Positions 3,493 through 61,693 of a DNA stretch of 64,000 nt are shown here, piece after piece. Below the pieces are notes generated by a model that did not search any database, had not been told where the DNA came from, and saw nothing but the letters and a program-made list of their open reading frames with translations. Within the stretch, counting starts at the first letter, position 1; the number at the start of each line of letters is the position of its first letter. Origin of the DNA: a virus; IMG/VR virus record IMGVR_UViG_3300047462_000185, positions 42,638 to 106,637 of that record, one strand, 5' to 3'. The translations under genes were made by a program, and so were the position numbers.

Positions 3493-3697
3493 GGGGTATC
3501 TCCTCAGTGCCGCGCAGAATTGCGTGGCGTATGCCTTGGGGCATTTCGCTGAGCGAGACGACGCGCCGAATGGCGTTGATCCGCTTGCATATATGGTGAT
3601 TTCCCGTTGCCCAGGCAACATGAAATCACATGGTCATGTGTTTTTCAAGCGGTTTTCACATGGTCCTGTGCGAATTCGTTCCACGTGGAACACGGCG

Positions 3698-3925
3698 TCA
3701 CAGGAGGGGGTCGAACTTCTGCTGCGCTGCGATGAAGTCCTGCGCGGCGCGGGCGGCGGCGAGATATTCGACCGAGGGCCGCTTGTCGATCTCCTGGCCG
3801 GGCCGGTAGGTGGCCCACACTGCATCCCTGAGCGGCTTGGGCAGGCTGAACCAGTGCTGCTTGCACATGAACATCCGGGGCGGCACGGCCCGCTGGCAGC
3901 CCGGCGCGTGGCAGGTGTGGGGCAT
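3698..3925 (-). CDS. small Cys/His zinc-binding phage protein
   Basis: HTCHAPGC...MCKQHW motif. Confidence 0.65.
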   Translation of the reverse strand: MPHTCHAPGCQRAVPPRMFMCKQHWFSLPKPLRDAVWATYRPGQEIDKRPSVEYLAAARAAQDFIAAQQKFDPLL

Positions 3926-4183
3926 TACTGGGGCAACTCCATGTCCCATTCGTGGCCGCAAATGTCGCACCGCATCGTCACGATATCGCCGCCGGGATAT
4001 CCGTCGCGGTCAGCGATCTCGTATGCGGCCGGATGAACAGCCGGCGTCGGACCGCCCTTATGCCAGGGATTCAGTTCCGTGCAGACGAAACGCACTTTCT
4101 GAGGCGCTCTCTCAGGATTTGTCATCGACCGCTGCCGTCGCACTCAGGCGCAGCTTTCGCGCGCTCGCGATACGACTGCGACA

Positions 4184-4576
4184 TCAGGCCATTTCCTCGG
4201 CGCGGGCCTGGTGACGCGCCAGGGTGTGCAGCCGACCCAGCACCGAGCTACCCGCACGGGGTGGAACCATCTGCTTGCCTGTCAGGTGCGCCGAGACGCC
4301 CTGAGCCGCGAGGCGCAGGATGAAAGCATCATCTTCGGCGGTGAAAACGCGCACCACCCGTCCGGCGCGGTAGTTGACCGGCTTACGGACGGGGATCGCA
4401 GTCTGGCGCCGCAGTTCGGTCGGCAGATCGACGCCGTGGGTCAGGCAATGCCAGGCGATGCAACCGGGCGACACGCCGAACCGCCGGGCAATCTCTGGGA
4501 AACCCAGGCCCTCGACCTCACGCATCTGGAACGCTCGGTCGAGGTCGTCCTGGCTGAGCTTGGCGATGCGCCTCAT
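4184..4576 (-). CDS. HTH DNA-binding protein
   Basis: GLGFPEIARRFGVSPGCI helix-turn-helix. Confidence 0.7.
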   Translation of the reverse strand: MRRIAKLSQDDLDRAFQMREVEGLGFPEIARRFGVSPGCIAWHCLTHGVDLPTELRRQTAIPVRKPVNYRAGRVVRVFTAEDDAFILRLAAQGVSAHLTGKQMVPPRAGSSVLGRLHTLARHQARAEEMA

Positions 4577-6225
4577 TCCGCGGCCTCCTGCTGCCCGGCC
4601 TCCTCGTCGGCCTCCGAATCACCCTCGCCGTCATCGTCATCACCGGGTCGCGCCACGATGGGCGCCCGGTCGTCGAACCAGCCCGGCGGCGTCCAACCCG
4701 GCAGCTTGCCGACCAGCTGTGCGCGCAGCTTCGCCCCGGTCTTGGCCGGGACCATCTCCTTGCCCTCGGCCAGCAGCGCCAGCACGTCCGCATTGACGTG
4801 CGCCAGGAATTCCTCGGTGTCGAACCGTGGCTGCTCGACGTGGAAAATCTGGCTGCCAATCCACCCCACGGCAGGGCCGCTCCCGATGCCCTTGCCGTCC
4901 GAGACTTGGATGATGCGGGACAGCGCCTCGCCGGCCATGATCTTCAGATCATCGACGCTCGCGCTGTTGGTGGGCCACGCCAGGGCGCGCTCCGCAATGT
5001 CCTCCATATTTTCGGTGCGCCACGCCACGCCATCCCTGGTGATCCGCAGATTGCTGGCCGCCAGCGCGATCAGCAGAAGCCTGATCATATTGGCGTCGCT
5101 GAGCGCCCGGATTTCGTCGGAGAACGCCTCGGCGAAGAAGCCGCGCTTCATCTCGTTCAGCAGGATTGCGCCCTTCTTGTCGATCGGCGGCTTCACTGTG
5201 ACCGGCTTAGGGTCATCCTGGATCGCCGCTCGGCCCGGCGCGCCCTTCTTTTTCGCGCCGGCTTCGCTGATTGCGGCCGCCGTGGCGCGACCCATGCCAT
5301 AGCCCTCGGGCACGACGCCGATCAGTAGCTTGCGGTCCGGACCCGGGCTGCGGATCGGCTTGCGCGCGTCGAACTGGATGGTGTGTTCCATCTTCCAGCC
5401 GGCCGGCGCCACCAGCAGGCCGGTCGGCCCGACCTCGCCATAGACGGCATGCTTGCTCTTGGCGGCCAACGCCTTCACGGCCTGCACCTGGCAGGCCATG
5501 AACTTTTTCGTGTCCGACGTGGTGAACCGGTCGTCGGCGTCAGGCTCGGCGAACAGGTCCTCGTCCCAGACGATGCCGAATGCGTCAGGATCGAACAGGG
5601 CATCGACCTTGTTCAGTCGCATCACCTCGCAGTGCCGCGCGATGTAATGCCACCGCGGCTCCCGCGCGCCCTTCGGGCCAGCCCAGGAGTGGCGATGCGC
5701 GATAGCCGCCTTCTGCATATCGCGCGGAGCCGCGACGATCCGGCGCAGCTCGTGGGTATTCGGGATGCCGTGCTCGGCAATGGCGGCCAGAACGTCCGGA
5801 TGCGCGCCCGCGAGCAGAGTCATGCGGCGCGCCGTGGTCTCGGGAATGCCCAGGGACTGGGCCGCCAGAGCGACCGACATTCCCCCGTCCTGCAGCGTCT
5901 TCATGGCGCGCCACTGGTCGACCGGGTTCATGCTGCTGCGAACCATGTTCTCAGCCGCTCCAGCGGCGACGATCTGATCGCCGGAGCCGGCATGGTCGAT
6001 CGCCTCGATCTCGGTCCAGCCCAGCGCCTGAGCGGCCCGCCAGCGCCTCTCGCCAGCGACGATGACGTAACGTCGACCACCTTCCGGATTGTCGCGCACC
6101 AGGATCGGCTGCAGCTGGCCCAGCGTGGACATGCTGATCCGCAGCGCCTCGTCCGCCTCCCTCGAAGGCTTGATCCGCCGCACATTGTCCGGATCCGGGG
6201 AGATGTGCGTGATATCGATTTTCAT
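4573..6225 (-). CDS. ParB/Srx N-terminal domain protein
   Basis: NVRR...LGQLQPILVR...IVAGERRWRAA...ENMVR ParB motifs. Confidence 0.9.
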   Translation of the reverse strand: MKIDITHISPDPDNVRRIKPSREADEALRISMSTLGQLQPILVRDNPEGGRRYVIVAGERRWRAAQALGWTEIEAIDHAGSGDQIVAAGAAENMVRSSMNPVDQWRAMKTLQDGGMSVALAAQSLGIPETTARRMTLLAGAHPDVLAAIAEHGIPNTHELRRIVAAPRDMQKAAIAHRHSWAGPKGAREPRWHYIARHCEVMRLNKVDALFDPDAFGIVWDEDLFAEPDADDRFTTSDTKKFMACQVQAVKALAAKSKHAVYGEVGPTGLLVAPAGWKMEHTIQFDARKPIRSPGPDRKLLIGVVPEGYGMGRATAAAISEAGAKKKGAPGRAAIQDDPKPVTVKPPIDKKGAILLNEMKRGFFAEAFSDEIRALSDANMIRLLLIALAASNLRITRDGVAWRTENMEDIAERALAWPTNSASVDDLKIMAGEALSRIIQVSDGKGIGSGPAVGWIGSQIFHVEQPRFDTEEFLAHVNADVLALLAEGKEMVPAKTGAKLRAQLVGKLPGWTPPGWFDDRAPIVARPGDDDDGEGDSEADEEAGQQEAAE

Positions 6226-9483: not shown

Positions 9484-9917
9484 TTCGCTGTCCTTGCTGG
9501 ATTGGCGATAAGCTACATGGTAGTGTGTTTTCTCGTCAAGCCCGGGGGACGTGATCAAGATGCGACGCCGTCCAAACCCACTCAGCCATGTGCCAGTCAC
9601 GCGAGCACAGGCGATAGCGGCTCACACGGCGGGCCAGCATGCCTATGCTGCTGGCACCGAACACGGTGCGTGCGACATCGCGAGTGTAGAGCTTAGGTGG
9701 CAATGGCAGGCCGGCTGGCGCGCCGCCGATGCAGCGTTCTGGCGCCGGCTACGCGATTGTGCTGAGCGCGGCCCGCTTCCAGGTGTTGGTCGCGGTGCGG
9801 ACCTAGACATAGCTCGCGTCCCACGATCCGCCGTCGAGCCGACACACCGGATGGAGCTTCCACCAAACTCACTTGGCTAGAATGCGAAAAAGCCCCCCGA
9901 ACAAACGGGCGGCTTTG

Positions 9918-12672: not shown

Positions 12673-13224
12673 CTATGCTGGTGGAACAAGTGCGGGATAG
12701 CGTGACCGAGCCACGTCTGTGACGTCGATCTGCGCCACGCTTCCGAACGATCCTCTGGTTGTCATGTCGTGGACCGCATCGCGGAGCGATTCGACCAGTT
12801 GGTGGACATCGACCGTGACGCGCTCATGCGCTTCGCGGCTGCCGCCCTGCCAGGCATCGATCACTTCGCAAGCCTCCTCGCCGGACGTAACGCCGTCGAT
12901 GAGAAGGTCTGTCGTTGCGGTCAACGTGACATCCACGCGCGCCGTGTATTGTTCTGGTCGCGGCGTGAACAGAGGCAGGTCGTCATCGTCCGCCCGATAG
13001 AGCGAGACGGTGGCGACGAGATTTCCAAGCATTCTCACTTGCACGTCCTTCTCGAACGAGAGCGCGACAAGCGTCTCGACCGGATCGGTGTGCGGGTGCA
13101 GCCGAGAGACAAAATCATCGAGGCCGAGGACACTGGTTGTGCCGTCGGCATGATGAATTCGGAATGACGGTGGCATTCCTGTCTCCTTCGATTGTTTGGG
13201 GGTGTGACGAGTCCGAAACGGCAA
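12673..13224 (-). CDS. hypothetical protein
   Basis: long ORF; true start probably MPPSF near 13176. Confidence 0.6.
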   Translation of the reverse strand: MPFRTRHTPKQSKETGMPPSFRIHHADGTTSVLGLDDFVSRLHPHTDPVETLVALSFEKDVQVRMLGNLVATVSLYRADDDDLPLFTPRPEQYTARVDVTLTATTDLLIDGVTSGEEACEVIDAWQGGSREAHERVTVDVHQLVESLRDAVHDMTTRGSFGSVAQIDVTDVARSRYPALVPPA

Positions 13225-13572
13225 TCGTCACGGAATAGATATGGTGCGCAGATCGGCCAAAATCAACGAGTTGGGGCCTGGCGACTCATTTGCATGTGTT
13301 TTTTTGTTCGGGCTTGCACGGGCGCCGGGTGCGGGATTAGGTTCTCGGCTTCGGTCCAAATGAAAACCCCCCGGCCTGGCGGGCCGAGGGGTCTGAAGGG
13401 ATCGATCAATTCGCTTGGCTGTTACCGCAGCCTTGCGGCGATGCTGGGGGCGTCGGCCCCGGCCCGGACTGATCCCGAGTCGCTTAGGCTTGGGATATAT
13501 GGGCTTTTCAGCCTCGTCGCAAGGCCTTCCGCAACGCGAAAGCACACATTGCTGTGTTTTCATGGAGGGTCG

Positions 13573-14640
13573 ATGCATTCGTCGTTCAACGCCCCGGCCT
13601 GCTCTTGGGCATTTTCAATCACAGCGCCCTCGGCGCACGCAAAGCTGCTGTTGGTAGCGGTGGCTGCGCATGCGGATCAGGACGGGCTGTCGAAGGTCTC
13701 GATCACGCGGTTGGCCGAGATGACGGATATGAGCTTGCGGGGCGTTCACAACGTCCTGGCCCAACTTGAGCGGGCACGCCTGATCGCCGGCGAGCGAGTG
13801 CCGGGCATCGTGACGGCCTACAGAATCAAATGGCGTGGCACCGCCAAGGAAATGGAGACCCCTGCACCGGATGCAGGGGTGGTTGTCGGAACTCCTGCAC
13901 CGGATGCAGGGGTGGTTGTCGGAACCCCTGCACCGGATGCAGGGGTGGTTGTCGGAACCCCTGCACCGGATGCAGGGGTTCGCGCGCGCGTAGATTCTGA
14001 ATCTCAGAGAGAGAAAGAAAGAAAGGAAGTAAGCAAGTCCTCAGATTCTTCTCCGCTTCGCTACGAAGAATCTGAGACCCCCCTGCCCCCCACAGAAATT
14101 CCGACAGCGGCACAACTCGCCAAGGCTGAGATTGGCGGCAGGATGCGGGACATTTGGAACGCGGTGGTCAAGCCGTTCCCGCATTTTGCCCAGTCGAAGT
14201 GGCTCACCCCGAAGCTGCTCAATCTCGCGGTCGAGCGGTTCCAGCACGAGTTCAACCGCAGCTTCGAGCAGTGGGAAGCCTATTGCCGCAGGTTGACCAG
14301 GAACGCGTGGCTCCGCGGCGAACGTCCGGACGACAGGTCGTGGCGCCCCAGCATCGAGTGGGCCATCCAGGCCGACACGGTGCTGAAGGAGGCCGAGGGC
14401 CGCTACCCGCCCGACCCGGAGCCGAAGCCCCAGGTCGTGCAGCCGATGCACGACGTCGATCCCACCCAGGACCCGATCTGGGGCAAGCCGAACAGGATCA
14501 AGCTCGAGATCGCGCTGGCGATGCAGCGCCCCGTGATCGACGACGCCAAGCTCCAGGAGCTGTCGCGCGACTACAAGGCGGCGCTGGTCGAGGCCAGAGC
14601 CGCCCAGGCCGCGCTGAGCGGGGCGGTGGCCCATGTCTGA
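13573..14640 (+). CDS. phage replication initiator (N-terminal HTH, lambda O-like organisation)
   Basis: AKLLLVAVAAHADQDG...SITRLAEMTDMSLRGV..L..LE HTH; internal iteron repeats; directly upstream of primase-helicase. Confidence 0.8.
   Translation: MHSSFNAPACSWAFSITAPSAHAKLLLVAVAAHADQDGLSKVSITRLAEMTDMSLRGVHNVLAQLERARLIAGERVPGIVTAYRIKWRGTAKEMETPAPDAGVVVGTPAPDAGVVVGTPAPDAGVVVGTPAPDAGVRARVDSESQREKERKEVSKSSDSSPLRYEESETPLPPTEIPTAAQLAKAEIGGRMRDIWNAVVKPFPHFAQSKWLTPKLLNLAVERFQHEFNRSFEQWEAYCRRLTRNAWLRGERPDDRSWRPSIEWAIQADTVLKEAEGRYPPDPEPKPQVVQPMHDVDPTQDPIWGKPNRIKLEIALAMQRPVIDDAKLQELSRDYKAALVEARAAQAALSGAVAHV
13858..13979. repeat. 33-bp tandem iterons (3 full + 1 partial), putative replication origin
   Basis: ACCCCTGCACCGGATGCAGGGGTGGTTGTCGGA x3.7, each with a 9-bp inverted repeat; purine-rich tract follows at about 14006-14037. 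Confidence 0.85.
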
Positions 14641-16540
14641 CGCTCGGCCCGACGAGACCCTGGAAGATGCGCTGGGGCGGCACGGCATCCAGCTGCCCGG
14701 CGCGCCCAAGGCTGGGCACACCTACGGCGGCCCACGCGACCGGCGCCAGGTCATGTGCCCGCATTGCAATGGCGGGAGGTCCCGCGAGGCCAACTTCTTC
14801 GTCACGATCGACGCGGACGGCCAGGGTGCGGTGTGGGTGTGCCATAGCGCCAAGCGCTGCGGGTGGACCGGGTCGGTGCGCCTGCAAAATGCACCCCATA
14901 TCAAGCGCGCCAAGGCGCCTCGCCCGATCCGCCGGCCAGAGCCGGAGCGTGACCCGCAGCTGCCCGAGCAGACCATTGCCTACTTCGCGGCGTTCGGGGT
15001 GCCGCTCGAGACGCTTGAAGAGTTCGGCGTGTTCCGCACCGTGCGGCGCTTTCCGGTCATGGACGCAGAGGGGCGCTTCACCGACGAGAAGCTGCCTCGC
15101 CCCTGTATCGCCTATCCGTATTACCGCGGCGGCGAGTTGGTGAACTGCAAATACAAGACGGTTTACCCCAGCGGGAAAAAGGCCTTCGCGCAGGAGTGGG
15201 GCGCCGAACGGACGATGTTCAACATCGATGCGTTCGAGTCGGATGACATCGGTTACATCGTCGAGGGCGAGGACGACGTCCTGGCGATGCGACAGTGCTA
15301 CCGCCAGGTCACCACGCTGCCCGACGGCAGTCCTTCGGCCAAGAAGCACGAGGAACCGGAGCAGCCCTACGACCCTGACCAGGACGACGATGATCGCTAC
15401 GAGGCGCTGCGCAACGAGCCGAAGATCTTGAACCTAAAGAAGGTCGTGCTGTGCGGCGACGCCGATGAGGCCGGGGCGCGGCACATGGAGCAGATCGCGC
15501 GGCGCATCGGCAAGGAGAAATGCTGGATCGTGCGCTGGCCCACCAACTGCAAGGACGCCAAGGACACGTTGAGGCTATATGGGCCAGAGGCATTGTTCGC
15601 CACGGTCGAGGCTGCGGTGCCCTACCCGATCGACGGGTTGGCCGATGTCGATGACGAGGAGATCGCCAGCTATAGAGCCGGCCTCGACGAGAAGCGCATC
15701 ACGTGCGGCATTTCGCAGATCGACCGCTACCTATCGCTCGCCGATTCGGGTCGCAACTTCATCGCCTGCACCGGGATACCGGGTCACGGCAAGACCGCGT
15801 TCTGGGTCGCGTTATCCGTGCTCTATGCTGAGACCAACACCGACTTCCACACCGTCATGTTCTCGGGCGAGATGGAGGTGAAGGAGATCGTCGCGGCGAT
15901 CGCCTCGGCGCATACCCAGAAGCCATTCTTCGATGGGCCGGCCGGCGAGGGCATCAGCACCGACGAGCTGGTCGATCATGTGCTGCCCTGGATGCGGCAG
16001 CACTACACCTTCATCGAGCCGGAGGACAGCAGGGGCGACAGCCCTCCGGTCGACTGGGTCGTCGAGAAGGGCCGCATCGCGATCCGGCGCACCAAGGCTA
16101 AGCTGTTCATCGTCGATCCGTGGCAGGAGATGGACATGTGCTACCCGGAACGGTGCAGCAAATCCATGTCGGCCTGGATCGGCGATCAGCTGCGCAAGTT
16201 CCGCTACTTGGGCCGGACCGAGCGGTGCAACGTGGTCTGTGTGGCGCACCCGTCGAAGTTGAGGCGCGACAAGGACGGCAAGCTGCCGATCCCTGAGGGC
16301 TACGATATCATGGACAGCCAGCAGTGGTTCTCGGTGAGCCGCACCGGCATGACGATTTACAGGCCGGGCGATGACAGCAGCCCCGAAATGAAGGTGCGGG
16401 TCTGGAAGGCGCGCTACAGCCAGTTCGCGATGAGGGGCGACACCTCGGTGCGGTTCAACAAGACGACGAAGCGGCTCTACCCCCCTCTGACCCAGGCCGA
16501 CATCGATTCGGGGCGCGCCTGGGGCAGCGACGCGGCTTAG
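14633..16540 (+). CDS. primase-helicase (T7 gp4/Twinkle-like)
   Basis: Zn finger CPHC, TOPRIM IVEGEDD and DADEAG, Walker A TGIPGHGKT, IVDPW, VAHPSK. Confidence 0.93.
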   Translation: MSDARPDETLEDALGRHGIQLPGAPKAGHTYGGPRDRRQVMCPHCNGGRSREANFFVTIDADGQGAVWVCHSAKRCGWTGSVRLQNAPHIKRAKAPRPIRRPEPERDPQLPEQTIAYFAAFGVPLETLEEFGVFRTVRRFPVMDAEGRFTDEKLPRPCIAYPYYRGGELVNCKYKTVYPSGKKAFAQEWGAERTMFNIDAFESDDIGYIVEGEDDVLAMRQCYRQVTTLPDGSPSAKKHEEPEQPYDPDQDDDDRYEALRNEPKILNLKKVVLCGDADEAGARHMEQIARRIGKEKCWIVRWPTNCKDAKDTLRLYGPEALFATVEAAVPYPIDGLADVDDEEIASYRAGLDEKRITCGISQIDRYLSLADSGRNFIACTGIPGHGKTAFWVALSVLYAETNTDFHTVMFSGEMEVKEIVAAIASAHTQKPFFDGPAGEGISTDELVDHVLPWMRQHYTFIEPEDSRGDSPPVDWVVEKGRIAIRRTKAKLFIVDPWQEMDMCYPERCSKSMSAWIGDQLRKFRYLGRTERCNVVCVAHPSKLRRDKDGKLPIPEGYDIMDSQQWFSVSRTGMTIYRPGDDSSPEMKVRVWKARYSQFAMRGDTSVRFNKTTKRLYPPLTQADIDSGRAWGSDAA

Positions 16541-16600
16541 CGGGCTTGCGAAACACATAACCGTGTGGTTTGTTGCGAGTCCCTTCATCCAGGAGCGATC

Positions 16601-48667: not shown

Positions 48668-48859
48668 TCATAGGTAGACCCCTTCCCTGATCTGGGTGGC
48701 GAGCCGGATCACCTCGTCGAGCTGGCCCGTCGAGATCAACGCCTGAGGCGACCGTCCGCCCAGCAGCTTGTGCGGCTCGTCCAGCCAGTCGTCGAACTCC
48801 TCCAGGGTGAACAGGTCGCTCAGCAGTTCGTAGACCTGGGTCGCGTCGATGCAGTCCAT
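48668..48859 (-). CDS. Xre/MbcA/ParS-type antitoxin C-terminal domain protein
   Basis: WLDEPHKLLGGRSPQALI.TG..DEV. Confidence 0.7.
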   Translation of the reverse strand: MDCIDATQVYELLSDLFTLEEFDDWLDEPHKLLGGRSPQALISTGQLDEVIRLATQIREGVYL

Positions 48860-50468: not shown

Positions 50469-50498
50469 TTGCGCGACCACATCAAGATGGGATAGCGC
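50469..50498 (+). promoter_or_regulatory. putative sigma70-type promoter of the tRNA operon, with an operator in the spacer
   Basis: TTGCGC-N18-TAGCGC; CACATCAAGATGGG near-operator at 50478-50491. Confidence 0.5.
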
Positions 50499-50757: not shown

Positions 50758-50832
50758 GGGGGCGTAGCTCAGCGGGAGAGCACTGGTCCTGCAAACCGGG
50801 TGTCGTCGGTTCGAGTCCGACCGCTTCCACCA
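50758..50832 (+). tRNA. tRNA-Ala(TGC)
   Basis: cloverleaf, G3:U70, encoded CCA; C33. Confidence 0.9.
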
Positions 50833-50836
50833 CTAT

Positions 50837-50911
50837 GCGGCTGTAGCTCAGAGGTAGAGCACCTGCTTGCCAAGCAGGATGTCGAGGGTTCGATTCCCTC
50901 TGGCCGCTCCA
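50837..50911 (+). tRNA. tRNA-Gly(GCC)
   Basis: canonical cloverleaf, U73, CCA. Confidence 0.95.
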
Positions 50912-50940
50912 TATTGCGTGTCCCGATTGGGACGATAGTT

Positions 50941-51015
50941 GCGCTTGTAGCTTAATGGTAGAGCCGGCTGCTCATAACAGCCTCGGTGCCCGTTCGACCC
51001 GGGCCGGGCGCACCA
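50941..51015 (+). tRNA. tRNA-Ile2/Met(CAT)
   Basis: cloverleaf, loop CTCATAA; Ile2 vs Met unresolved. Confidence 0.85.
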
Positions 51016-51034
51016 TTTGGCTCGCGCAGGAGAT

Positions 51035-51110
51035 AGCGGGGTAGACTGGAGGCGGTTCCAGCTAGGTCTCATAAGCCTAAGAGGGTGGTTCGATTCCACC
51101 CCCGCTACCA
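51035..51110 (+). tRNA. tRNA-Met(CAT), atypical D arm and acceptor
   Basis: TAGGT-CTCATAA-GCCTA, T loop TTCGATT, CCA. Confidence 0.75.
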
Positions 51111-51114
51111 AATT

Positions 51115-51189
51115 GCCGATGTAGCTCAGTGGTAGAGCGCCGCTTTGAAGAAGCGGGCGTGGGTGGTTCAATTCCATCCGTCGGCACCA
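51115..51189 (+). tRNA. tRNA-Phe(GAA)
   Basis: cloverleaf, loop TTGAAGA. Confidence 0.92.
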
Positions 51190-51193
51190 CGAT

Positions 51194-51269
51194 GCGGCGC
51201 TAACACTCTGGGGAGTGTGTCTGCCTTCCAAGCAGTTCCAGACGGGTTCGATCCCCGTGCGCCGCTCCA
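51194..51269 (+). tRNA. tRNA-Gly(TCC)
   Basis: cloverleaf, loop CTTCCAA. Confidence 0.9.
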
Positions 51270-51331
51270 TCTAGCCGGGAGTGCTCCATTTTGCACGTCC
51301 GCGCCACGGTGCGGTCCGGCGGCCATTTCGA

Positions 51332-51408
51332 TCCGGTCGGTCCATAATGGCAATGGAACGAGACTGTTAATCTCGACGCTGCTGGTTCGAATCCAGCGAC
51401 CGGAGCCA
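51332..51408 (+). tRNA. tRNA-Asn(GTT)
   Basis: U1-A72, G73, loop CTGTTAA. Confidence 0.9.
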
Positions 51409-51412
51409 GTTT

Positions 51413-51486
51413 GGGAGTCAAGTGTTACGGTAGCACGACCGGCTCCAACCCGGTTAGCGTGGGTTCAACTCCTACGACTCCTGCCA
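51413..51486 (+). tRNA. tRNA-Trp(CCA)
   Basis: loop CTCCAAC, G73. Confidence 0.9.
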
Positions 51487-51490
51487 AATT

Positions 51491-51566
51491 GCGTCGCGAG
51501 CCAGACGGCAGAGGCGTTCCGCTGCAAACGGAAAAACACCGTGTTCAATTCACGGGCGGCGCTCCA
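51491..51566 (+). tRNA. tRNA-Cys(GCA)
   Basis: loop CTGCAAA, U73. Confidence 0.85.
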
Positions 51567-51573
51567 ACTCGAT

Positions 51574-51649
51574 GGTGACGTGAGTCAGCCGGCGTGGACG
51601 GCCCGCTGTGACCGGGTCTAGATGGGTTCAACTCCCATACGTCACCCCA
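51574..51649 (+). tRNA. tRNA-His(GTG)
   Basis: G-1:C73, loop CTGTGAC. Confidence 0.88.
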
Positions 51650-51653
51650 ATTT

Positions 51654-51728
51654 GCCGGATTAGCACAGCGGAAGTGCAGTGGTTTTGTAAACCGAAGGTC
51701 AGGAGTTCGAATCTCCTATCCGGCTCCA
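51654..51728 (+). tRNA. tRNA-Thr(TGT)
   Basis: loop TTTGTAA. Confidence 0.92.
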
Positions 51729-51737
51729 GTTTCATGA

Positions 51738-51811
51738 TCCCCGGTCGTCTAATGGCAGGACATCGGATTCTGGATCCGAGGGTTGTGGTTCGAGTCCATG
51801 CCGGGGAGCCA
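51738..51811 (+). tRNA. tRNA-Gln(CTG)
   Basis: U1-A72, loop TTCTGGA. Confidence 0.92.
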
Positions 51812-51847
51812 TTGAAACACACACTTCGATGTGTTATTGCCGTTTTA

Positions 51848-52159
51848 ATGAAGATGCGCACCGATCGCAGTCAGATCAAGGAAATGCTTCGAAGAGGCGT
51901 TTCATATTCGAAGATCACTGCTAAGACGGGCGCAACAAAAGGCACGCTCAGCTACATAGCAAAGAGCAGTGGAAAACCTCTAACGCTTCGTCTTGATCAT
52001 TTCGATGGTGATGGAGGAAATCACGACATTGAAAACCTACGGTTCATATGTCCCAATTGCGATAGCCAATCTCCAACTTACGGACACAGAAACCGCGGGC
52101 GTTACGCTCGGCTTGGGGTTAAGCTTTCAAGTGTGCAGGGTAGCCACACCGCGTTTTGA
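51848..52159 (+). pseudogene. HNH homing-endonuclease remnant inside the tRNA array
   Basis: HTH-like N-terminus fused to PLTLRLDHFDGDGGNHDIENLRFICPNCDSQ; first CxxC absent; lower GC. Confidence 0.7.
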
Positions 52160-52198
52160 GCGCGGAAGCAAGGGGTTCGACTCCTCGGCCCCAAACCA
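52113..52198 (+). tRNA. tRNA-Gln(TTG), about 10-nt insertion before the D arm
   Basis: TTGGGGT/GCCCCAA acceptor, CCGCG-TTTTGAG-CGCGG. Confidence 0.7.
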
Positions 52199-52202
52199 GT
52201 TT

Positions 52203-52277
52203 CGCCCATTCGTTCAATGGCAGGACAACCGATTCTCGATCGGTCAACGCGGGTTCGATTCTCCGCATGGGCGACCA
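52203..52277 (+). tRNA. tRNA-Glu(CTC)
   Basis: loop TTCTCGA. Confidence 0.85.
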
Positions 52278-52280
52278 GTT

Positions 52281-52362
52281 GCGCGTGTGGCGGAACGGTA
52301 GACGCGGCCCCCTTAAAGCGGGCTGTCTCGGCGTGCAGGTTCGATTCCTGTCGCGCGCACCA
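52281..52362 (+). tRNA. tRNA-Leu(TAA)
   Basis: class II D loop, loop CTTAAAG, variable arm. Confidence 0.88.
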
Positions 52363-52376
52363 ATCAGGAGCAGCAC

Positions 52377-52571
52377 ATGAGTGATCGCGATGTCCCGCTG
52401 CACACCTACGAGCTGATCTATCGAGACGCCAATGTGAAGCGACAGCGCATGCGCGTCGCCGGCGGCTGGATCTACTCGTGCTCGCTGCTTAGCTCGACCG
52501 GCAGCGTGGCAATTTCGGAAGTTTTGGTTCCAGATGCTCGCGTGGGCCAACAGGTAGAGTCAGCACGTTGA
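52377..52571 (+). CDS. small hypothetical protein within the tRNA array
   Basis: AGGAG SD; RMRVAGGWIY motif; 3' end overlaps tRNA-Leu(GAG). Confidence 0.6.
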   Translation: MSDRDVPLHTYELIYRDANVKRQRMRVAGGWIYSCSLLSSTGSVAISEVLVPDARVGQQVESAR

Positions 52572-52612
52572 GAGCGTGTCCAGTGCCGGTTCGAGTCCGG
52601 CCGCGAGCACCA
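52536..52612 (+). tRNA. tRNA-Leu(GAG), short variable loop
   Basis: loop TTGAGAG, A73. Confidence 0.88.
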
Positions 52613-52616
52613 GATT

Positions 52617-52693
52617 GCGGGGATGGGCAAATCGGTAAAGTCGCTGCGTTCAGACCGCAAGGTGTGGGCTTCGAATGCACCCGCTCTCCGCCA
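52617..52693 (+). tRNA. tRNA-Leu(CAG), degenerate
   Basis: loop TTCAGAC; bulged T stem; no NCCA after acceptor. Confidence 0.6.
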
Positions 52694-52696
52694 AAT

Positions 52697-52785
52697 GGAA
52701 GGTGAAGTCGGCAGGAGCCGGCCGCCCGTTCGAAACGGGAGGAGACCCGCGAGGGTCAGGGGATCAAGACCTCCGCCTTCCGCCA
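52697..52785 (+). tRNA. tRNA-Ser(CGA)
   Basis: GGA/TCC acceptor, G73, long V arm, loop TTCGAAA. Confidence 0.85.
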
Positions 52786-52789
52786 GCTT

Positions 52790-52878
52790 GGATCGTGCCG
52801 GGGGTTGGCTCCCCCAGCGGGTTGCTAACCCGTGGCTCCCCTCCGGGGATGAGGGTTCGATGCCTTCACGATCCGCCA
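52790..52878 (+). tRNA. tRNA-Ser(GCT)
   Basis: loop TTGCTAA, long V arm, G73. Confidence 0.85.
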
Positions 52879-52879
52879 T

Positions 52880-52955
52880 GCCCCGTTAGCAGAGTGGCTA
52901 ATGCGCGTCCTTGGTAAGGACGAGATCGCCGGTTCGATTCCGGCACGGGGCTCCA
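52880..52955 (+). tRNA. tRNA-Thr(GGT)
   Basis: loop TTGGTAA. Confidence 0.9.
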
Positions 52956-53041
52956 TACGACCAGCCGTTTGCACCACGCCTGAGCCGGCCGCGGCCTGAT
53001 GGGGCCGGACGCTTTCGCGAACGGGTGTGGCAGGCTGTGCT

Positions 53042-53126
53042 GGGCAGGGACAGCCGGTGGCTCCGGCGAGCGGCCTGTAAAGCCGTGCCCTTCGGGGGAG
53101 AGGATCGAAACCTCACCTGCCCACCA
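53042..53126 (+). tRNA. tRNA-Tyr(GTA)
   Basis: loop CTGTAAA, V arm, A73. Confidence 0.85.
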
Positions 53127-53128
53127 TT

Positions 53129-53203
53129 GCTCGCGTAGCTCAATGGCAGAGCAGTCGGTTGATAACCGACCGACGATGGGTTCGATTCCCACCGCAAGCA
53201 CCA
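53129..53203 (+). tRNA. tRNA-Ile(GAT)
   Basis: loop TTGATAA. Confidence 0.9.
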
Positions 53204-53214
53204 GATCACGAGAA

Positions 53215-53290
53215 ACACCGGTAACTCAGAGGCCAGAGTGCTGTCCTTTTAAGTCAGAGGTCGCGGGTTCGAATCCCGTCCGGTGTTCCA
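53215..53290 (+). tRNA. tRNA-Lys(TTT)
   Basis: loop CTTTTAA, U73. Confidence 0.88.
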
Positions 53291-53363
53291 TGAATTCCTC
53301 GCGGACGCGCGGGGCGCTGCATTCCGCGATAGGTCCAAAGAGCACGCGGGTGCAGCTGGATTT

Positions 53364-53437
53364 GCTCGCATCTTTCAGTGGCAGGAAGCTGGATTGTCGA
53401 TCCGGTAACAGGGGTTCGATCCCCCTTGCGAGCGCCA
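53364..53437 (+). tRNA. tRNA-Asp(GTC)
   Basis: loop TTGTCGA, G73. Confidence 0.9.
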
Positions 53438-53568
53438 TAAAGCCGCTTCATCAAATCGGCGCGCCATCTACCTGCCGCTTGCCGAGGCGCGGCGAGGGTC
53501 AAACCGAAGCCGAGGGGTGCGACCCGCCCCGAAGCCTGGGGCTCGCCCGCCACGGCAAGCAGCAGTTT

Positions 53569-53644
53569 CAGGGCGTAGGACAGTGGCCAGTCCGCCTGCT
53601 TCGGGAGCAGGAGATCGTGAGTTCGAATCTCACCGCCTTGACCA
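53569..53644 (+). tRNA. tRNA-Pro(CGG)
   Basis: C1-G72, loop TTCGGGA. Confidence 0.93.
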
Positions 53645-53652
53645 TTTTCGTT

Positions 53653-53725
53653 GTCCTCGCCTGCGGATCAGGCGCCGGCACTCCTAATGCTGGGTGCGCC
53701 GGTTCGAATCCGGCCGGGGACGCCA
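53653..53725 (+). tRNA. tRNA-Arg(CCT), non-canonical core
   Basis: loop CTCCTAA, 6-bp anticodon stem, no 8-9 linker. Confidence 0.8.
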
Positions 53726-53726
53726 A

Positions 53727-53801
53727 CAGGATGTAGCTCAATGGGAGAGCACCGCGTTTGGGGCGCGGGGGCTGGTGGTTCGAGTCCACTCATCCTGACC
53801 A
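53727..53801 (+). tRNA. tRNA-Pro(TGG)
   Basis: loop TTTGGGG. Confidence 0.93.
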
Positions 53802-53804
53802 ATT

Positions 53805-53879
53805 GCGTGCATAGCTCAGCGGGAGAGCGCTCCGTTCACACCGGGGATGTCGGGAGTTCAATCCTCTCTGCACGCACCA
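53805..53879 (+). tRNA. tRNA-Val(CAC)
   Basis: loop TTCACAC. Confidence 0.93.
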
Positions 53880-53951
53880 GTTCGGGGGGCACAGTCCCGC
53901 CCGTGGGGCACGGTCCGACCCGGAGAACCGGTCGGCCGCGAAGCTATCGTT

Positions 53952-54026
53952 GCGCGCCTAGCTCATCGGGAGAGCGTCGCTTTGACATAGCGAAGGCGGC
54001 CGGTTCGATTCCGGCGGCGCGCACCA
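53952..54026 (+). tRNA. tRNA-Val(GAC)
   Basis: loop TTGACAT. Confidence 0.93.
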
Positions 54027-54039
54027 GCTACCGCTCCGG

Positions 54040-54305
54040 CGGTTATGGCTGTAACGGCCTGGATGGAATGCCGACCTGGACCCGGGGGCAGCGCCCGGCG
54101 TCTCCACCAAGGGGGACGACGCAGATCTCGACAGGTCGATCAAAGATCCAGGCTCAGCCCGGCAAGGAACGGCCGGCAATCTGTCCGCATGAGAAATGCC
54201 AATGACAACACTGGCATGGGAGCGGTGCGCCTCGCGGCGTAACCACCCGGCGCCCTGAGGGGGGCGTGGCAACAGCAGGGGCGGCCCTCGAAAGGTCGCC
54301 CCACC
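54040..54305 (+). ncRNA. ssrA: circularly permuted two-piece tmRNA; tag (A)ANDNTGMGAVRLAA
   Basis: acceptor 3' end CGTCTCC-ACCA (to 54109) precedes 5' end GGGGACG (54112, G3:U70); tag ORF 54198-54242; CGACCTG/CAGGTCG and GCCTGGAT/ATCCAGGC pairings; outer ends approximate. Confidence 0.92.
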
Positions 54306-54316
54306 CTCGCCTATTC

Positions 54317-54392
54317 GGGGCTGTGGCGCAGCTGGGAGCGCGTCTGCATGGCATGCAGAAGGTCGTCGGTTCGATTCCGACCAGTTCCACCA
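54317..54392 (+). tRNA. tRNA-Ala(GGC)
   Basis: G3:U70, loop ATGGCAT. Confidence 0.95.
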
Positions 54393-54396
54393 AATT

Positions 54397-54470
54397 GCCG
54401 CGGTCGAATAAGGTAGTTCACCGGTCCTTCAAATCGGTCGGCGCGGGTTCAAATCCCGTCCGCGGCACCA
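54397..54470 (+). tRNA. tRNA-Glu(TTC)
   Basis: loop CCTTCAA. Confidence 0.85.
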
Positions 54471-54495
54471 ACCGTTTCCATATTGGAAAGTGTTT

Positions 54496-54568
54496 ACCCC
54501 TGCCGATGGCTCTCGGGCTCTGCGCTACGAACGTGGAAGAGCTGGTTCGATTCCAGTCAGGGGTTCCA
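54496..54568 (+). tRNA. tRNA-Arg(ACG), non-canonical core
   Basis: loop CTACGAA; D stem abuts acceptor. Confidence 0.8.
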
Positions 54569-54574
54569 GATCAT

Positions 54575-54646
54575 GCGGCGGCCGCCGAGCCGGGCCATGG
54601 CCTTCTAAGCCGAGGGAGGTGGGGCAAGCACCCACCCGCCGCACCA
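54575..54646 (+). tRNA. tRNA-Arg(TCT), highly divergent
   Basis: GCGGCGG/CCGCCGC-ACCA, loop CTTCTAA, T loop GCAAGCA. Confidence 0.65.
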
Positions 54647-54650
54647 GCTT

Positions 54651-54723
54651 GCTCTCGCCTGTGGATCAGGCGCTGACCCTCCGAAGGTCGGACGCGCCGG
54701 TTCGAATCCGGCCGAGAGCTCCA
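54651..54723 (+). tRNA. tRNA-Arg(CCG), non-canonical core
   Basis: loop CTCCGAA, same fold as Arg(CCT). Confidence 0.8.
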
Positions 54724-54818
54724 GCAAGGGACCGGGTCGCGTGCGAGCGTGTCTCCCGGGACAAAGTCGATGCCGAGACGCGAGCCCCGGCATGGTCCCT
54801 CACAGCGGCGGCGCGACC

Positions 54819-54894
54819 GGCTGACGACGAGCGTGGAATGCAGTCCCGAGATGCCGCGCGGGGCAGGCCGTTCGATACGGCTAGTCGTCAGCCA
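54819..54894 (+). ncRNA. tRNA-like RNA without a canonical anticodon loop
   Basis: acceptor TGACGAC/GTCGTCA-GCCA, T arm GGCCG-TTCGATA-CGGCT, 10-nt loop AGATGCCGCG. Confidence 0.6.
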
Positions 54895-54943
54895 AACCGC
54901 CCAAAATCGGCGAAAAATATTCCTGGAAATATTCCAGATCGTT

Positions 54944-55025
54944 GCGGGCGTGGCGGAAAGGTAGACGCGGCCGGCTCAAACCCGGCTGATCATTCGTGCA
55001 GGTTCGAATCCTGTCGCTCGCACCA
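54944..55025 (+). tRNA. tRNA-Leu(CAA)
   Basis: loop CTCAAAC, class II D loop. Confidence 0.9.
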
Positions 55026-55031
55026 TTTCAT

Positions 55032-55119
55032 GGACCAGTGCGCCGAGTGGCGAAGGCAGCCGACTCTTAATCGGATGGGCGAAAGCCCCGCGTGAGTTCG
55101 AATCTCACCTGGTCCTCCA
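55032..55119 (+). tRNA. tRNA-Lys(CTT) with long variable arm
   Basis: loop CTCTTAA; V arm GGGC-GAAA-GCCC. Confidence 0.85.
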
Positions 55120-55121
55120 AT

Positions 55122-55196
55122 GCCCGTGTAGCTCAATGGCAGAGCAGCCGCCTCGTAAGCGGCCGACGAGCGGTTCGATTCCGCCCACCGGCTCCA
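55122..55196 (+). tRNA. tRNA-Thr(CGT)
   Basis: loop CTCGTAA. Confidence 0.88.
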
Positions 55197-58667: not shown

Positions 58668-58691
58668 GCGACTCTCCTTTGCGAGGTGGAC

Positions 58692-61649
58692 ATGGAAACA
58701 CATGATAATGTGCTTGCCAAGCGCGATTTGAGCGCGGCGCAACTTGCGGAGCGCAGCGTCGCTGCACGTGCCCGCTGGGCCGGCCATCGAGCCGAGACCA
58801 ATCCGACGGTCCGCCAAGCCGCGTGGGGAGAAGCGACACCGCCCTCCAAATCCGCCGTATCGCTGTTCCGGCAGGGCATGCCGTCGAGCGGCCGCTCAGG
58901 CGGGTTGTGGGACACCCGATCGGTCGAGCCGTCGGCGGGCCAGATCCGGGGCAGGTTGACGTTCCATTTCCCCAGGGCCTACCGCAGCGACAAGCCCGAC
59001 GCGCCGCTAAAGCACGAAAAGAAGCTGCTGGCCCATCGCCTCGCCGCTGATCCGGCCCAGCCCGTCGCGATCACCAACCCAGGCACCATCGCCGAGGCGC
59101 AGCGCCACCCCGAGATGCGCGCCCTGATGCAGGGCGCGGTCGAGACGGTGCGCCAGAACCAGAAGGGGGCGATCGCCAAGGCGACCGAGGACGGCATCAT
59201 CCCCGAGGGCACGCCGCCCGGTCTGGTGCGCGAGGCCTACAAGCACGCCGCGCTGCTGGCGCTCCACAAGGCCGGCCTGGTCGACTGGGCGTTCGAGATG
59301 GATGCCCACGCCAAGAAGGCGTTCAAGCCGCTGGTGCCGTTCATGCGCTATGCGTCGCGCCGCGTGTTCGACCAGCTCAACGTGCAGCACAAGGGCAAAT
59401 GGACCGCGTTCCGCGACGAGTTCGGCGAGGAATTCAAGGATCGACGGAAGGATGCGGCTGGCAAGGTGCGCCGGCGGATGCGGCCCAACCAGGAGTTCGT
59501 GAAGGTCGATCAGGCCTGGGGCGAGCTAGCCAAGGCGTTCGATGCGACGAAACACCCGCGCGGCCAAGGGGGTAAGTTCTCCCGCAGCGGCACGTTCGAC
59601 GATGCGATCCGCGGCGCTCAGCTGAGCGGGGGCGCCGTTGGCGGCATCGCGACGGGCCACCTGATTTCGTCGCCGCGGGCAGCGCGGCACCTGACAGCGG
59701 CCGTCGACAAGGTCGGCAAAAAGATTGGCAACGCGGCCGAGGCCCGGTTTCGCCTGGCGAGTCGAAAGGCCGGCGCCTACACGTCGCCGCATGCCGAGCA
59801 GGTGCTGCGCAGCCAGGGACGACTCCTGAACGGAGCTGCACGTCTGGCTGGCAAGGGGCTGGGGCGTGCTGGGATCGCCACAGCTGCCTTCGCCGCGGGC
59901 GATTACGCGGGCGACCTGGTAGGCCGCAAGGTGTTCGGCCAGCACGGCAGCAAGAAGCACTACCGGCATTTCAATGCCCTGGGTTTCGGTCTCGGCAGCG
60001 CCGGCGCGGTTGGTGCTCATCTGCTGGCCCGGGCCCGGTTCGCGCGCAAGCTGGTCCGTCGCTTTCCGTTGTCGGGACGCGCCAAGTTGCTGGCCTCTGG
60101 CATTGCCTTGACGGCTGGCCTTGAGGGGGCTGGCACGCACATCCAGGATCGCGGCGAAGAGGCAATCGGCAAGCTCGCCAAGATGACGCTGGCCGACCTG
60201 GGCCTCGACATCGGCAAGGCCCCTTCCCCGGGCCAACCGCTTCCCGGTGGAGTCCAGTCTGGCTGGCTTGCGGGCCGCCTCGCCCTGGCCCGCAAGGAGT
60301 CGCAGGGCCAGCGCGCCATGAAGATCCTGACCCAGAAACAGAAGATGGAGCGCCACTTCGCCGCCAACGCGGAACGGGTCAAGGACCTGGAGCACGCCCC
60401 CACCATCAAGCAGGGCATGCTCGGCTCGACCCGGGGCTACGACCTGAAGCGCGAGGGCATGTCCCAGCCCGGCCTGGGCCTGGGCGGCGCGATGGGGACC
60501 CGCATCGGCTCTGCCAGCCGGGTGGGCCAAGGCATGCGGATCGGATCGACCCAGCGCGTCGGTTCGGTCGACCGGATCAGCCCCGGGCTACGCCTGGGCC
60601 AGACCGCCAAGTTCGGCGTCAAGCAGAAGATCGGCACCACGGCGCGGTTCGGCGTGACGCAACGACTCAGCCCGTTCCAGCGGGTCGAGCCGGTCGGGCC
60701 GCTGCGCAAGGACACGATCGGCGGTCAGATGGTGATGCAGCGCGCCACGCACCTCGGTAACATCAGACCGATCGCCGCGCCGCACTACCAGAACAAGAAG
60801 ATCCAGTATCACGCCAACCCGACCTTCGCGCGGCCCGGCTCGATTCAGCGCTTCGTGAACTCGATCACGGGGGTCAACAGCGCGGCCATGTTACCTGGGC
60901 CAGCCCGCTCGTTCCGCAAGCCGCGCCGGTTCACCAGCCATTCCGCGACCAGCACCTACGGGGGCGCCTACGCCAGCTCGGGCACGCCGACGCAGGGCGG
61001 CGCCCAGATCAGCGTGCAGACCCCGAACCCGTCGCTCTACCAAAAGCTGGAGCCGATCGAGGAGGCTATCGCGCTGCGCAAGGCGATCCAGGATGTCGAA
61101 CGACGCGCCGCGGTCCGGCAGACCATGCACGAGTTCAAACATGGCAAGCTGCGGTCCGGGTCCAAGAAAGGGCCTCGCGTCACCAATCGTCGCCAGGCCG
61201 TCGCCATCGCGATCAGCCAGGCCGAGCGGCTCGGCAAGCGCGTCCCGGCCAAATTCCTGGCCGGGGCCGCCGTCGGCGCTGGCGCAGCCCTGTTCGGCCA
61301 GCACGCCAAGGAGTCCTACGACGAGAGCTCGCCGGCCACGCATGCCATGGCAGGAGCCGCGACCGGTCTTGGCGCGGCCTACCTGCTGGGCCGCACCAGG
61401 GCGCGCTACGCGGCCCGGCGCGAGGCGAGCCGCATCTTCCATGCCGGCCTCGATGCGGCGCGCACCCATCTGGGCGCGACGGGCGACAGGTCGGCGTTTC
61501 GGACCGCCAAGCATGCCGCGGTCCAAACGGCTCGAAAGCATCGTGACGAGGCCCGAGCCGCATGGCGGCCGCGCAAGTCGCACCTTGCCATTGGGGCCGC
61601 CACTGGCGCGACAGCAGCTCTCCCGTCTCGTGATCAGGAAAACACATAA
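58692..61649 (+). CDS. large basic modular protein (putative head/internal virion protein), contains a DUF6496-like segment
   Basis: FDATKHPRGQGGKF motif, Gly-zipper hydrophobic helices, MHEFKHGKLRSGSKKGPRVTNRRQAVAIAISQA. Confidence 0.75.
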   Translation: METHDNVLAKRDLSAAQLAERSVAARARWAGHRAETNPTVRQAAWGEATPPSKSAVSLFRQGMPSSGRSGGLWDTRSVEPSAGQIRGRLTFHFPRAYRSDKPDAPLKHEKKLLAHRLAADPAQPVAITNPGTIAEAQRHPEMRALMQGAVETVRQNQKGAIAKATEDGIIPEGTPPGLVREAYKHAALLALHKAGLVDWAFEMDAHAKKAFKPLVPFMRYASRRVFDQLNVQHKGKWTAFRDEFGEEFKDRRKDAAGKVRRRMRPNQEFVKVDQAWGELAKAFDATKHPRGQGGKFSRSGTFDDAIRGAQLSGGAVGGIATGHLISSPRAARHLTAAVDKVGKKIGNAAEARFRLASRKAGAYTSPHAEQVLRSQGRLLNGAARLAGKGLGRAGIATAAFAAGDYAGDLVGRKVFGQHGSKKHYRHFNALGFGLGSAGAVGAHLLARARFARKLVRRFPLSGRAKLLASGIALTAGLEGAGTHIQDRGEEAIGKLAKMTLADLGLDIGKAPSPGQPLPGGVQSGWLAGRLALARKESQGQRAMKILTQKQKMERHFAANAERVKDLEHAPTIKQGMLGSTRGYDLKREGMSQPGLGLGGAMGTRIGSASRVGQGMRIGSTQRVGSVDRISPGLRLGQTAKFGVKQKIGTTARFGVTQRLSPFQRVEPVGPLRKDTIGGQMVMQRATHLGNIRPIAAPHYQNKKIQYHANPTFARPGSIQRFVNSITGVNSAAMLPGPARSFRKPRRFTSHSATSTYGGAYASSGTPTQGGAQISVQTPNPSLYQKLEPIEEAIALRKAIQDVERRAAVRQTMHEFKHGKLRSGSKKGPRVTNRRQAVAIAISQAERLGKRVPAKFLAGAAVGAGAALFGQHAKESYDESSPATHAMAGAATGLGAAYLLGRTRARYAARREASRIFHAGLDAARTHLGATGDRSAFRTAKHAAVQTARKHRDEARAAWRPRKSHLAIGAATGATAALPSRDQENT

Positions 61650-61693
61650 CTCTGTGGCATTTTGCACGGACCATGTGATAAGCTGCCATTTTC

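Follow-up and report, generated by a model that had tools for sequence, protein, structure and literature searches.

A dispersed CACA-N6-TGTG palindrome as the predicted operator of a CI-like repressor in an uncultured tailed phage

The 14-base-pair (bp) palindrome CACA-N6-TGTG is scattered over the genome of an uncultured tailed phage, known from the IMG/VR record IMGVR_UViG_3300047462_000185, and is predicted here, as the likeliest reading, to be the operator for a CI-like repressor that the phage itself encodes at 22655-23392. The record is a contig of 106,637 bp, 93% complete and hereafter called G000. The window, i.e. the whole stretch of DNA analysed and to which the G000 positions refer, is formed by the last 64 kilobases (kb) of this contig. 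The prediction draws on the enrichment of the motif, its placement between genes, its co-occurrence with the CI-like gene in other phage records, the modelled fold of the CI-like protein and a promoter-like frame around many of the sites.

Sixteen perfect sites are present in the window, against a mean of 0.64 and a maximum of 3 in 100 dinucleotide-preserving shuffles, a comparison that had been named beforehand as a test of the idea. The whole contig carries 22 perfect sites where 0.66 are expected (Poisson p ~1e-25), and no other palindrome of 4+4 bases, whatever its spacer (0-14), comes near it in over-representation. The first-pass annotation of the window had listed 15 perfect sites, five sites with one mismatch (9514, 13285, 22281, 32420 and 50478) and TTG hexamers at 48902, 16546 and 51812. 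All of these are found in the sequence, the five mismatched sites are all intergenic, and a sixteenth perfect match, at 41492, can be added. Within the palindrome the half-sites lie 10 bp apart and the six central bases show no conservation across sites, while the flanks widen the symmetry to aaaCACAT-N4-ATGTGttt. Over the whole genome, sites with one mismatch are not in excess as a class (29 seen, 34 expected); however, 14 of the 29 are intergenic where 16% of the DNA is non-coding, which suggests about nine further degenerate sites in G000.

The placement of the palindrome is equally uneven. Coding sequence takes up 84% of G000, yet 17 to 19 of the 22 perfect sites fall between genes; at the outset most sites had been noted as intergenic or at gene ends. 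Divergent intergenic gaps hold six of them and convergent gaps none. A restriction-modification target was rejected as the meaning of the motif, since such a sequence would be avoided rather than enriched and would lack an intergenic bias. The sites of the window are as follows.

3627-3640: perfect site between a leftward gene of 75 amino acids (3698-3925) and a gene of 217 amino acids (2839-3492); TTGAAA 2 bp upstream in the leftward sense; in tandem with 3657 (30-bp spacing)
3657-3670: perfect site, second of the tandem pair with 3627
9514-9527: one-mismatch site TACATGGTAGTGTG, 30 bp upstream of the leftward operon for RecE-like exonuclease, Erf, SSB and ParB-like protein
13285-13298: one-mismatch site in a large divergent gap before the replication operon
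13543-13556: perfect site in the divergent gap between 12673-13176 (- strand) and 14143-14640 (+ strand), the latter followed by the primase/helicase gene
16554-16567: perfect site 13 bp past the primase/helicase stop and 33 bp before a gene of 121 amino acids; TTGCGA 2 bp upstream
22281-22294: one-mismatch site in the gap from the cro-like stop (22300) to the following leftward open reading frame (ORF); counterpart in record G009 at 74143
22605-22618: perfect site midway between the cro-like and CI-like genes, which are 64 bp apart; reading leftward (towards the cro-like gene), TTGATA stands 2 bp upstream
23501-23514: perfect site 108 bp past the CI-like stop and 68 bp before a gene of 163 amino acids; followed as in TGTGgTATTTC
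30149-30162: perfect site 86 bp upstream of a leftward gene of 115 amino acids; followed as in TGTG-TAAACA
31241-31254: perfect site in the gap that separates two small genes, both leftward, at 30953-31213 and 31286-31651
32420-32433: one-mismatch site in the divergent gap 32363/32626
32607-32620: perfect site 5 bp before a gene of 327 amino acids that precedes the large terminase gene; the 14-mer is identical to that of site 58699
33784-33797: perfect site 24 bp before the large terminase start (33822); followed as in TGTG-TAAGTT
40837-40850: perfect site in the divergent gap 40758/40948
41492-41505: perfect match inside an ORF of 88 amino acids, without A/T flanks; may be the single match expected by chance
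48906-48919: perfect site in the divergent gap 48859/48961; overlaps TTGACA (48902)-N17-TAGCGT
50478-50491: one-mismatch site 24 bp past the gene 50199-50453 and about 280 bp before the first tRNA
51820-51833: perfect site inside the tRNA array, 9 bp past tRNA-Gln; full promoter-like frame, TTGAAA-ca-[site]-t-TATTGC
58699-58712: perfect site at the 5' end of a gene of 1041 amino acids, probably within its first codons (probable ATG at 58692)
61643-61656: perfect site overlapping the stop of the 1041-amino-acid gene, 49 bp before a gene of 132 amino acids

Sites thus stand ahead of the cro-like gene, the recombination and replication operons, several small-gene arrays, the terminase gene and the gene preceding it, genes for head and tail, and the tRNA array. 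It had been proposed that one protein controls the early, replication, packaging and tRNA units; the sites do precede these units, as well as the recombination, head and tail genes, and this arrangement argues for such control. The RecE-like operon and a gene of 81 amino acids are site-bearing targets in several phages, and the position of the mismatched site at 9514 is also filled in two of the other records described below, G004 (22215) and G009 (62622). The protein of 327 amino acids after site 32607 had been labelled TerS, a label for which the Pfam scan gave no match. A terminator-like hairpin at 23407-23421 follows the CI-like gene, with site 23501 lying beyond it. Beside site 48906, the leftward gene 48668-48859 encodes a 63-amino-acid protein with an Xre/MbcA/ParS antitoxin C-terminal domain (PF09722, E = 9e-6), which may be part of a toxin-antitoxin pair under the 48906 operator.

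The two regulatory genes at the centre of the prediction are divergent and share the gap that holds site 22605.

22655-23392, + strand: CI-like gene, 245 amino acids, likely GTG start at 22655
22300-22590, - strand: cro-like gene, 96 amino acids with a helix-turn-helix-like segment, divergent from the CI-like gene

The CI-like protein matches PHROG 4, and its match to Pfam HTH_26 (E = 6e-4) is just under the curated cut-off. Its AlphaFold2 model, with a predicted local distance difference test (pLDDT) score of 93.7, displays an N-terminal five-helix bundle (residues 13-79) and a beta-rich C-terminal domain. In Foldseek the model matched LexA, 186 CI, the lambda-186 hybrid repressor and the C-terminal domain of lambda CI; the C-terminal domains of LexA, lambda CI and 186 CI were matched with a probability of 1.00, and the N-terminal domains of SinR and C.BclI were matched as well. 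According to the model, the protein can be described with high confidence as an XRE/Cro-C1 helix-turn-helix domain joined to an S24/LexA-type C-terminal fold. A tblastn search against 50,697 cultured-phage records gave no match, and a PDB sequence search retrieved only a weak one, to the AimR helix-turn-helix. A profile search found 1,371 relatives (E <= 1e-3), the few with a source name being called 'hypothetical protein' or 'XRE-family regulator'. In a sample of 58 family members, HTH_26 is recognized in 25 and Peptidase_S24 in 14 (best E = 1e-12). The closest homologue, P0004, shares 52% identity and is carried by an 82-kb contig. Alignment with the family member P0026 pairs its catalytic GLSM...TVKE with GQHA...TLRT in G000, so that the Ser and Lys of the dyad are replaced by His and Arg; the Lys is also Arg in the homologues of G004, G009 and G010. 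Canonical RecA-stimulated self-cleavage of the CI-like protein appears unlikely on account of this replacement.

Relatives of the phage allow the motif and the gene to be followed together. Searches with the large terminase (TerL) yielded related records of about 90-105 kb, and searches with CI-like alignments added G009, G010 and G011. Among the TerL relatives, tblastn of all G000 proteins located a CI-like homologue in G004 alone. This record has seven motif sites against 0.2 expected, all intergenic, with three in tandem at 30-bp spacing and sites on both sides of the CI-like homologue. G009 carries 16 sites, 15 of them intergenic and one situated 14 bp upstream of its CI-like homologue; the provirus G010 carries 15, including one 54 bp past the gene. 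G011, a 36-kb provirus of 59% GC, has three, one of which lies in the divergent gap beside a short CI-like homologue. All five records encoding the CI-like protein, G000 included, are therefore enriched for the motif and have a site within 150 bp of the gene (joint chance of adjacency, 5.8e-8). Conversely, none of the six TerL relatives G001, G002, G003, G006, G007 and G008, the last three being more distant, possesses a CI-like homologue or an enrichment of the motif. Across motif-bearing phages, the WAR-AGL-NANAIYN segment of the protein is nearly invariant, in agreement with an unchanged CACA/TGTG core among proteins that are 27-33% identical. The proposal that the CI-like protein reads the motif is strengthened by this co-occurrence, five of five against none of six, and by the modelled CI/LexA-type fold. 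No relatives came out of two metagenome scans, another viral scan retrieved G009 again and no new record, and wider alignments contained no stretch conserved enough for search patterns.

Two points in these comparisons weigh against our reading, and others, on the promoter frame and the gene calls, are given below. Firstly, genes for tail and recombination are also common to G000, G004 and G009. The function-assigned genes otherwise confined to the motif-bearing G004 and G009 are those for RecE-like exonuclease, Erf and tail proteins, beside which a few small ORFs without an assigned function are shared with G004, and part of the co-occurrence could reflect common descent. The palindrome would then be bound by a host transcription factor or by an unrecognised phage protein, its link with the CI-like gene being due to shared ancestry or a shared host. 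The very different provirus G011 weakens this objection, for the motif follows the CI-like gene into a 36-kb element of 59% GC as well as into records of 64-71% GC. A site adjoins the gene in every one of the five records, related phages devoid of the gene are also devoid of the motif, and the shared recombination and tail proteins are not sequence-specific regulators. We consider a host factor or another phage protein quite improbable. Secondly, the cro-like protein, with its helix-turn-helix-like segment, is always adjacent to the CI-like protein and could bind the same sites, much as lambda Cro and CI share operators: in all five motif-bearing records the two genes are divergent with a site between them. 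The cro-like gene does not track the motif, however, as homologues exist in the unenriched G001 (43% identity) and G003, and that this protein, alone or jointly with the CI-like one, is the main reader seems unlikely to us. The site lying between the two genes may nevertheless be read by both proteins. The cro-like protein gave no match to Pfam or PHROG families.

Several other candidates for binding the palindrome were tried and rejected. The ParB-like protein (4573-6225), for which the sites would have been centromeres, and the small helix-turn-helix protein at 40561-40758 have no homologue in the motif-bearing G004 and G009. RecE-like exonuclease, Erf and SSB are not sequence-specific. The NrdR box, acaCwAtATaTwGtgt, is a 16-bp palindrome with a conserved AT-rich centre, found in tandem upstream of nrd genes and read by the host NrdR. 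It was set aside because the six central bases of the phage motif are unconserved, because no ribonucleotide reductase occurs among the annotated genes flanking the sites and because the motif tracks a phage protein rather than a host.

The surroundings of the CI-like gene differ between these phages. The cro-like gene directly abuts the homologue of the 163-amino-acid gene in the motif-less G001 (~17094-17483) and G003 (~19248-19705), whereas the CI-like gene separates them in the window (22591-23582); for this reason the CI-like gene and its two flanking sites look like an inserted cassette. Just past the CI-like gene of G004 (segment L017, ~2403-2430) stands a nested 28-bp palindrome, TTCACATCACATAGCTGTGTGATGTGAA, with two overlapping operator-like symmetries. 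In the related phage G002 (L031-L035), a distinct 8-mer, CGCCGGCG, is present in 75 copies where 16 are expected; in G000 the count is 51 against 20.

The sequences bordering the sites resemble promoters. For the 44 co-directional intergenic sites of the five motif-bearing records, oriented by their downstream gene, a TTG starts 7-9 bp before the site in 14 of the sense flanks and in 1 of the 44 antisense flanks (p = 3e-4), the background rate being 1.2% per position. The gene-side flank reads TGTG-n-T-A, with an A at +3 in 22 of 44 cases; on the opposite side 7 of 44 have it (p = 0.001). Combined, these features give the frame TTGnnn-N2-[CACA-N6-TGTG]-N1-TAnnnT, in which the operator fills a 17-bp spacer. 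About a third of the sites stand exactly in this promoter-spacer frame, with 16554, 51820, 3627 (leftward) and 22605 (towards the cro-like gene) as examples in the window; site 48906 overlaps its TTGACA-N17-TAGCGT in another register. The excess of a -35-like TTG on the sense side and the -10-like TA on the gene side support the view that the sites control promoters. Because the site fills the promoter spacer, its position would fit steric repression better than a block of elongation.

Four moss metatranscriptomes contain RNA contigs that align to parts of 13001-33000. These contigs cover the cro-like gene and not the body of the CI-like gene, a pattern that says nothing on repression. Two contig ends, at 22592 and 30133, fall where the promoter frame predicts starts, some 13-15 nucleotides past the gene-side TGTG (near 22592 and 30134), another, at 30116, lies near site 30149, and one contig (22389-22650) runs across site 22605; as contigs cannot show transcript ends or expression levels, these are weak hints of transcript starts. 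The stretch 24716-25187 is represented by one contig in each of the four metatranscriptomes, at a word depth of 41-132 against 2-12 for other phage contigs. It has no Rfam match and a fold z-score of -2.2, the leftward ORF 24713-25192 overlaps it, and it may correspond to a very abundant phage RNA or to a highly expressed small gene. In the small-gene arrays, one contig (run X13) joins 26789 to 31900 and omits 5,110 bases; 55 bases at the junction fit either side, which points to a repeat of at least 55 bp shared by two parts of these leftward arrays.

The promoter frame has its own difficulties. Many sites have neither TTG nor TA at the expected place and may be auxiliary sites, roadblocks or parts of unrecognised promoters. 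A scan for Escherichia coli-type promoters found 1 against 2.6 expected and none at the sites, with a consensus that is not informative for this host. Some sites are merely 5-19 bp from a start codon or, as at 58699, within the first codons, and for these start-proximal sites roadblock, leaderless-promoter and auxiliary roles cannot be told apart. The genes themselves were called with a home-made codon-usage caller. The frameless sites, together with the tandem arrays at 30-33 bp spacing in G000, G004 and G011, would suit a CI-like protein that binds the motif mainly as an activator or as an architectural protein engaged in looping or partition. Such a role is very unlikely in our view: a site that fills the spacer between -35 and -10 and overlaps an extended -10 is in an occluding position, the modelled fold is of the CI/LexA repressor type, and neither G004 nor G009 has a homologue of the G000 ParB-like gene.

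The palindrome might also act in RNA, as a small hairpin, a terminator or a processing site, given that several sites lie a few bases past a stop codon and are followed by T-rich sequence. The stem would have merely 4-5 A/U-rich pairs, however, and the sequence is conserved beyond mere pairing, which conserved one-mismatch sites disrupt. Moreover, the six divergent and zero convergent gaps, the promoter-like asymmetry of the flanks and the terminator-like hairpins in 20001-40000, none of which coincides with a motif site, all speak against it, and we regard a function in RNA as extremely unlikely.

In the repression scheme that we infer, a dimer of the CI-like protein would contact two half-sites separated by one helical turn, each through one of its helix-turn-helix domains. 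At no fewer than a third of the sites, the 14-bp operator would fill the 17-bp spacer of a sigma-70-type promoter, TTGnnn-N2-operator-N1-TAnnnT, its TGTG half serving also as an extended -10, and the bound repressor would keep RNA polymerase off the promoter. Since a site precedes almost every transcription unit, a single protein could silence the whole prophage, namely the cro-like gene, recombination, replication, the small-gene arrays, packaging, head, tail and tRNAs. Cooperative binding would be possible at the tandem sites, which are spaced by 30 bp. Induction would probably take place without the canonical RecA-stimulated self-cleavage, the S24-like domain having lost its Ser-Lys dyad.

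Repressors acting at many places of a phage genome have precedents. The C1 repressor of phage P1 controls many operons through about 22 operators distributed over the genome (PMC8546580). Both P1 and G000 are temperate phages of ~100 kb, probably so in the case of G000, with tRNA genes; the 22 perfect sites over 106.6 kb of G000 reproduce the P1-type trait of about 20 dispersed operators over many operons. In contrast, the P1 operators are asymmetric and 17 bp long (ATTGCTCTAATAAATTT) where the site described here is a 14-bp palindrome, an integrase is present in G000, and the absence of any tblastn match in the same phage records gives no sign that the CI-like protein belongs to the P1 C1 family.

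Cluster A mycobacteriophages such as L5, with gp71, and TipsytheTRex have more than 20 repressor sites in promoters and short intergenic gaps (PMC9283540, PMC6550527). Their sites are asymmetric 13-mers that act in one orientation only and stop elongation, and their repressor is a monomer made of a helix-turn-helix and a 'stoperator' domain (PMC9283540). The first-pass annotation had drawn a parallel with these stoperators, which holds for dispersal: G000 has 22 perfect and about nine probable degenerate sites, likewise in promoters and short intergenic gaps. It does not extend to an oriented block of elongation, since many sites of G000 are within promoter spacers. The G000 core is a perfect palindrome, only the flanks being asymmetric (TTG upstream, TA downstream), and the CI-like protein is modelled with a CI/LexA fold.

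The two-domain architecture suggested by the fold search is that of lambda CI, 186 CI and LexA. These repressors join an XRE or winged helix-turn-helix to an S24 domain and bind palindromes as dimers; as in the lambda-type systems, the CI-like gene and a cro-like gene point away from each other across an intervening site. Lambda, however, has two operator regions instead of about two dozen sites, and the Ser-Lys dyad of lambda CI and LexA is replaced by His and Arg in the CI-like protein. The 434 repressor and the C repressor of Rhizobium phage 16-3, a phage with an alphaproteobacterial host, recognize ACAA-N6-TTGT, a 14-bp site with 4-bp half-sites and a 6-bp spacer. These phages are not known to have more than a few operators, at the immunity region, and the half-site is ACAA instead of CACA; the CI-like protein is unmatched in the cultured-phage collection. 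The repressor c of Streptomyces phage phiC31 uses a palindromic site at roughly 18 places of the genome. phiC31 would be the nearest conceptual match, its protein family and site being unrelated and its host actinobacterial. What differs from all these systems is the combination of a protein modelled with a CI/LexA fold, a palindromic site, an operator in the promoter spacer and a degenerate dyad, in an uncultured group of phages presumed to infect Alphaproteobacteria.

Other genes of G000 inform on its lifestyle and host. The first 40 kb of the contig encode head and tail proteins, and the following features belong to the window.

4573-6225: ParB-like gene
14633-16540: primase/helicase gene
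33822-36398: large terminase gene, 858 amino acids
37751-39544: portal gene
44820-46025, + strand: tyrosine integrase gene
Leftward: recombination operon with RecE-like exonuclease, Erf and SSB
50758-55196: array of tRNA genes, 29 in number
54030-54242: permuted transfer-messenger RNA (tmRNA) of alphaproteobacterial type, within the tRNA array (RF01849, 112 bits; also RF04321)

The tyrosine integrase gene indicates that the phage is probably temperate, and the alphaproteobacterial-type tmRNA that its host is probably an alphaproteobacterium. In the window, the Rfam families that reached their gathering score were limited to the tRNAs and the tmRNA. The DNA of this phage was found in moss metagenomes, and its closest cultured portal proteins, at 44% identity, are those of Brevundimonas phages. 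Megablast of 20 kb against cultured phages gave no match, and a TerL scan of genome contigs gave distant matches only (a Tautonia genome and a Saccharibacteria metagenome-assembled genome), without any prophage host being found. In the large terminase, terminase homology begins at residue 436 and the N-terminal 430 residues are weakly helicase-like (phrog_30356, E = 5e-7).

A broader proposition, possible although we hold it only tentatively, is that the family combining XRE and S24-like domains, with ~1,300 members, consists of widespread master repressors of alphaproteobacterial prophages. They would share one code, CACAT-N4-ATGTG, across hosts of 59-71% GC, silence whole 100-kb genomes by means of a portable operator-in-spacer cassette and have given up RecA-dependent self-cleavage. 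Were this true, a route of induction independent of the SOS response would be implied, for instance by an antirepressor. The general view of phage immunity is left unchanged, dispersed operator networks being already known from P1 and L5. For the phages studied here, a probable recognition sequence and regulon can now be assigned to a protein family devoid of any characterised member, which provides a first, predicted regulatory map for uncultured, tRNA-rich, probably temperate phages of ~100 kb from moss-associated Alphaproteobacteria. From the fixed layout, with the operator in the spacer, transcription start sites can be predicted, and the repressor-operator pair could serve as a genetic switch in Alphaproteobacteria.

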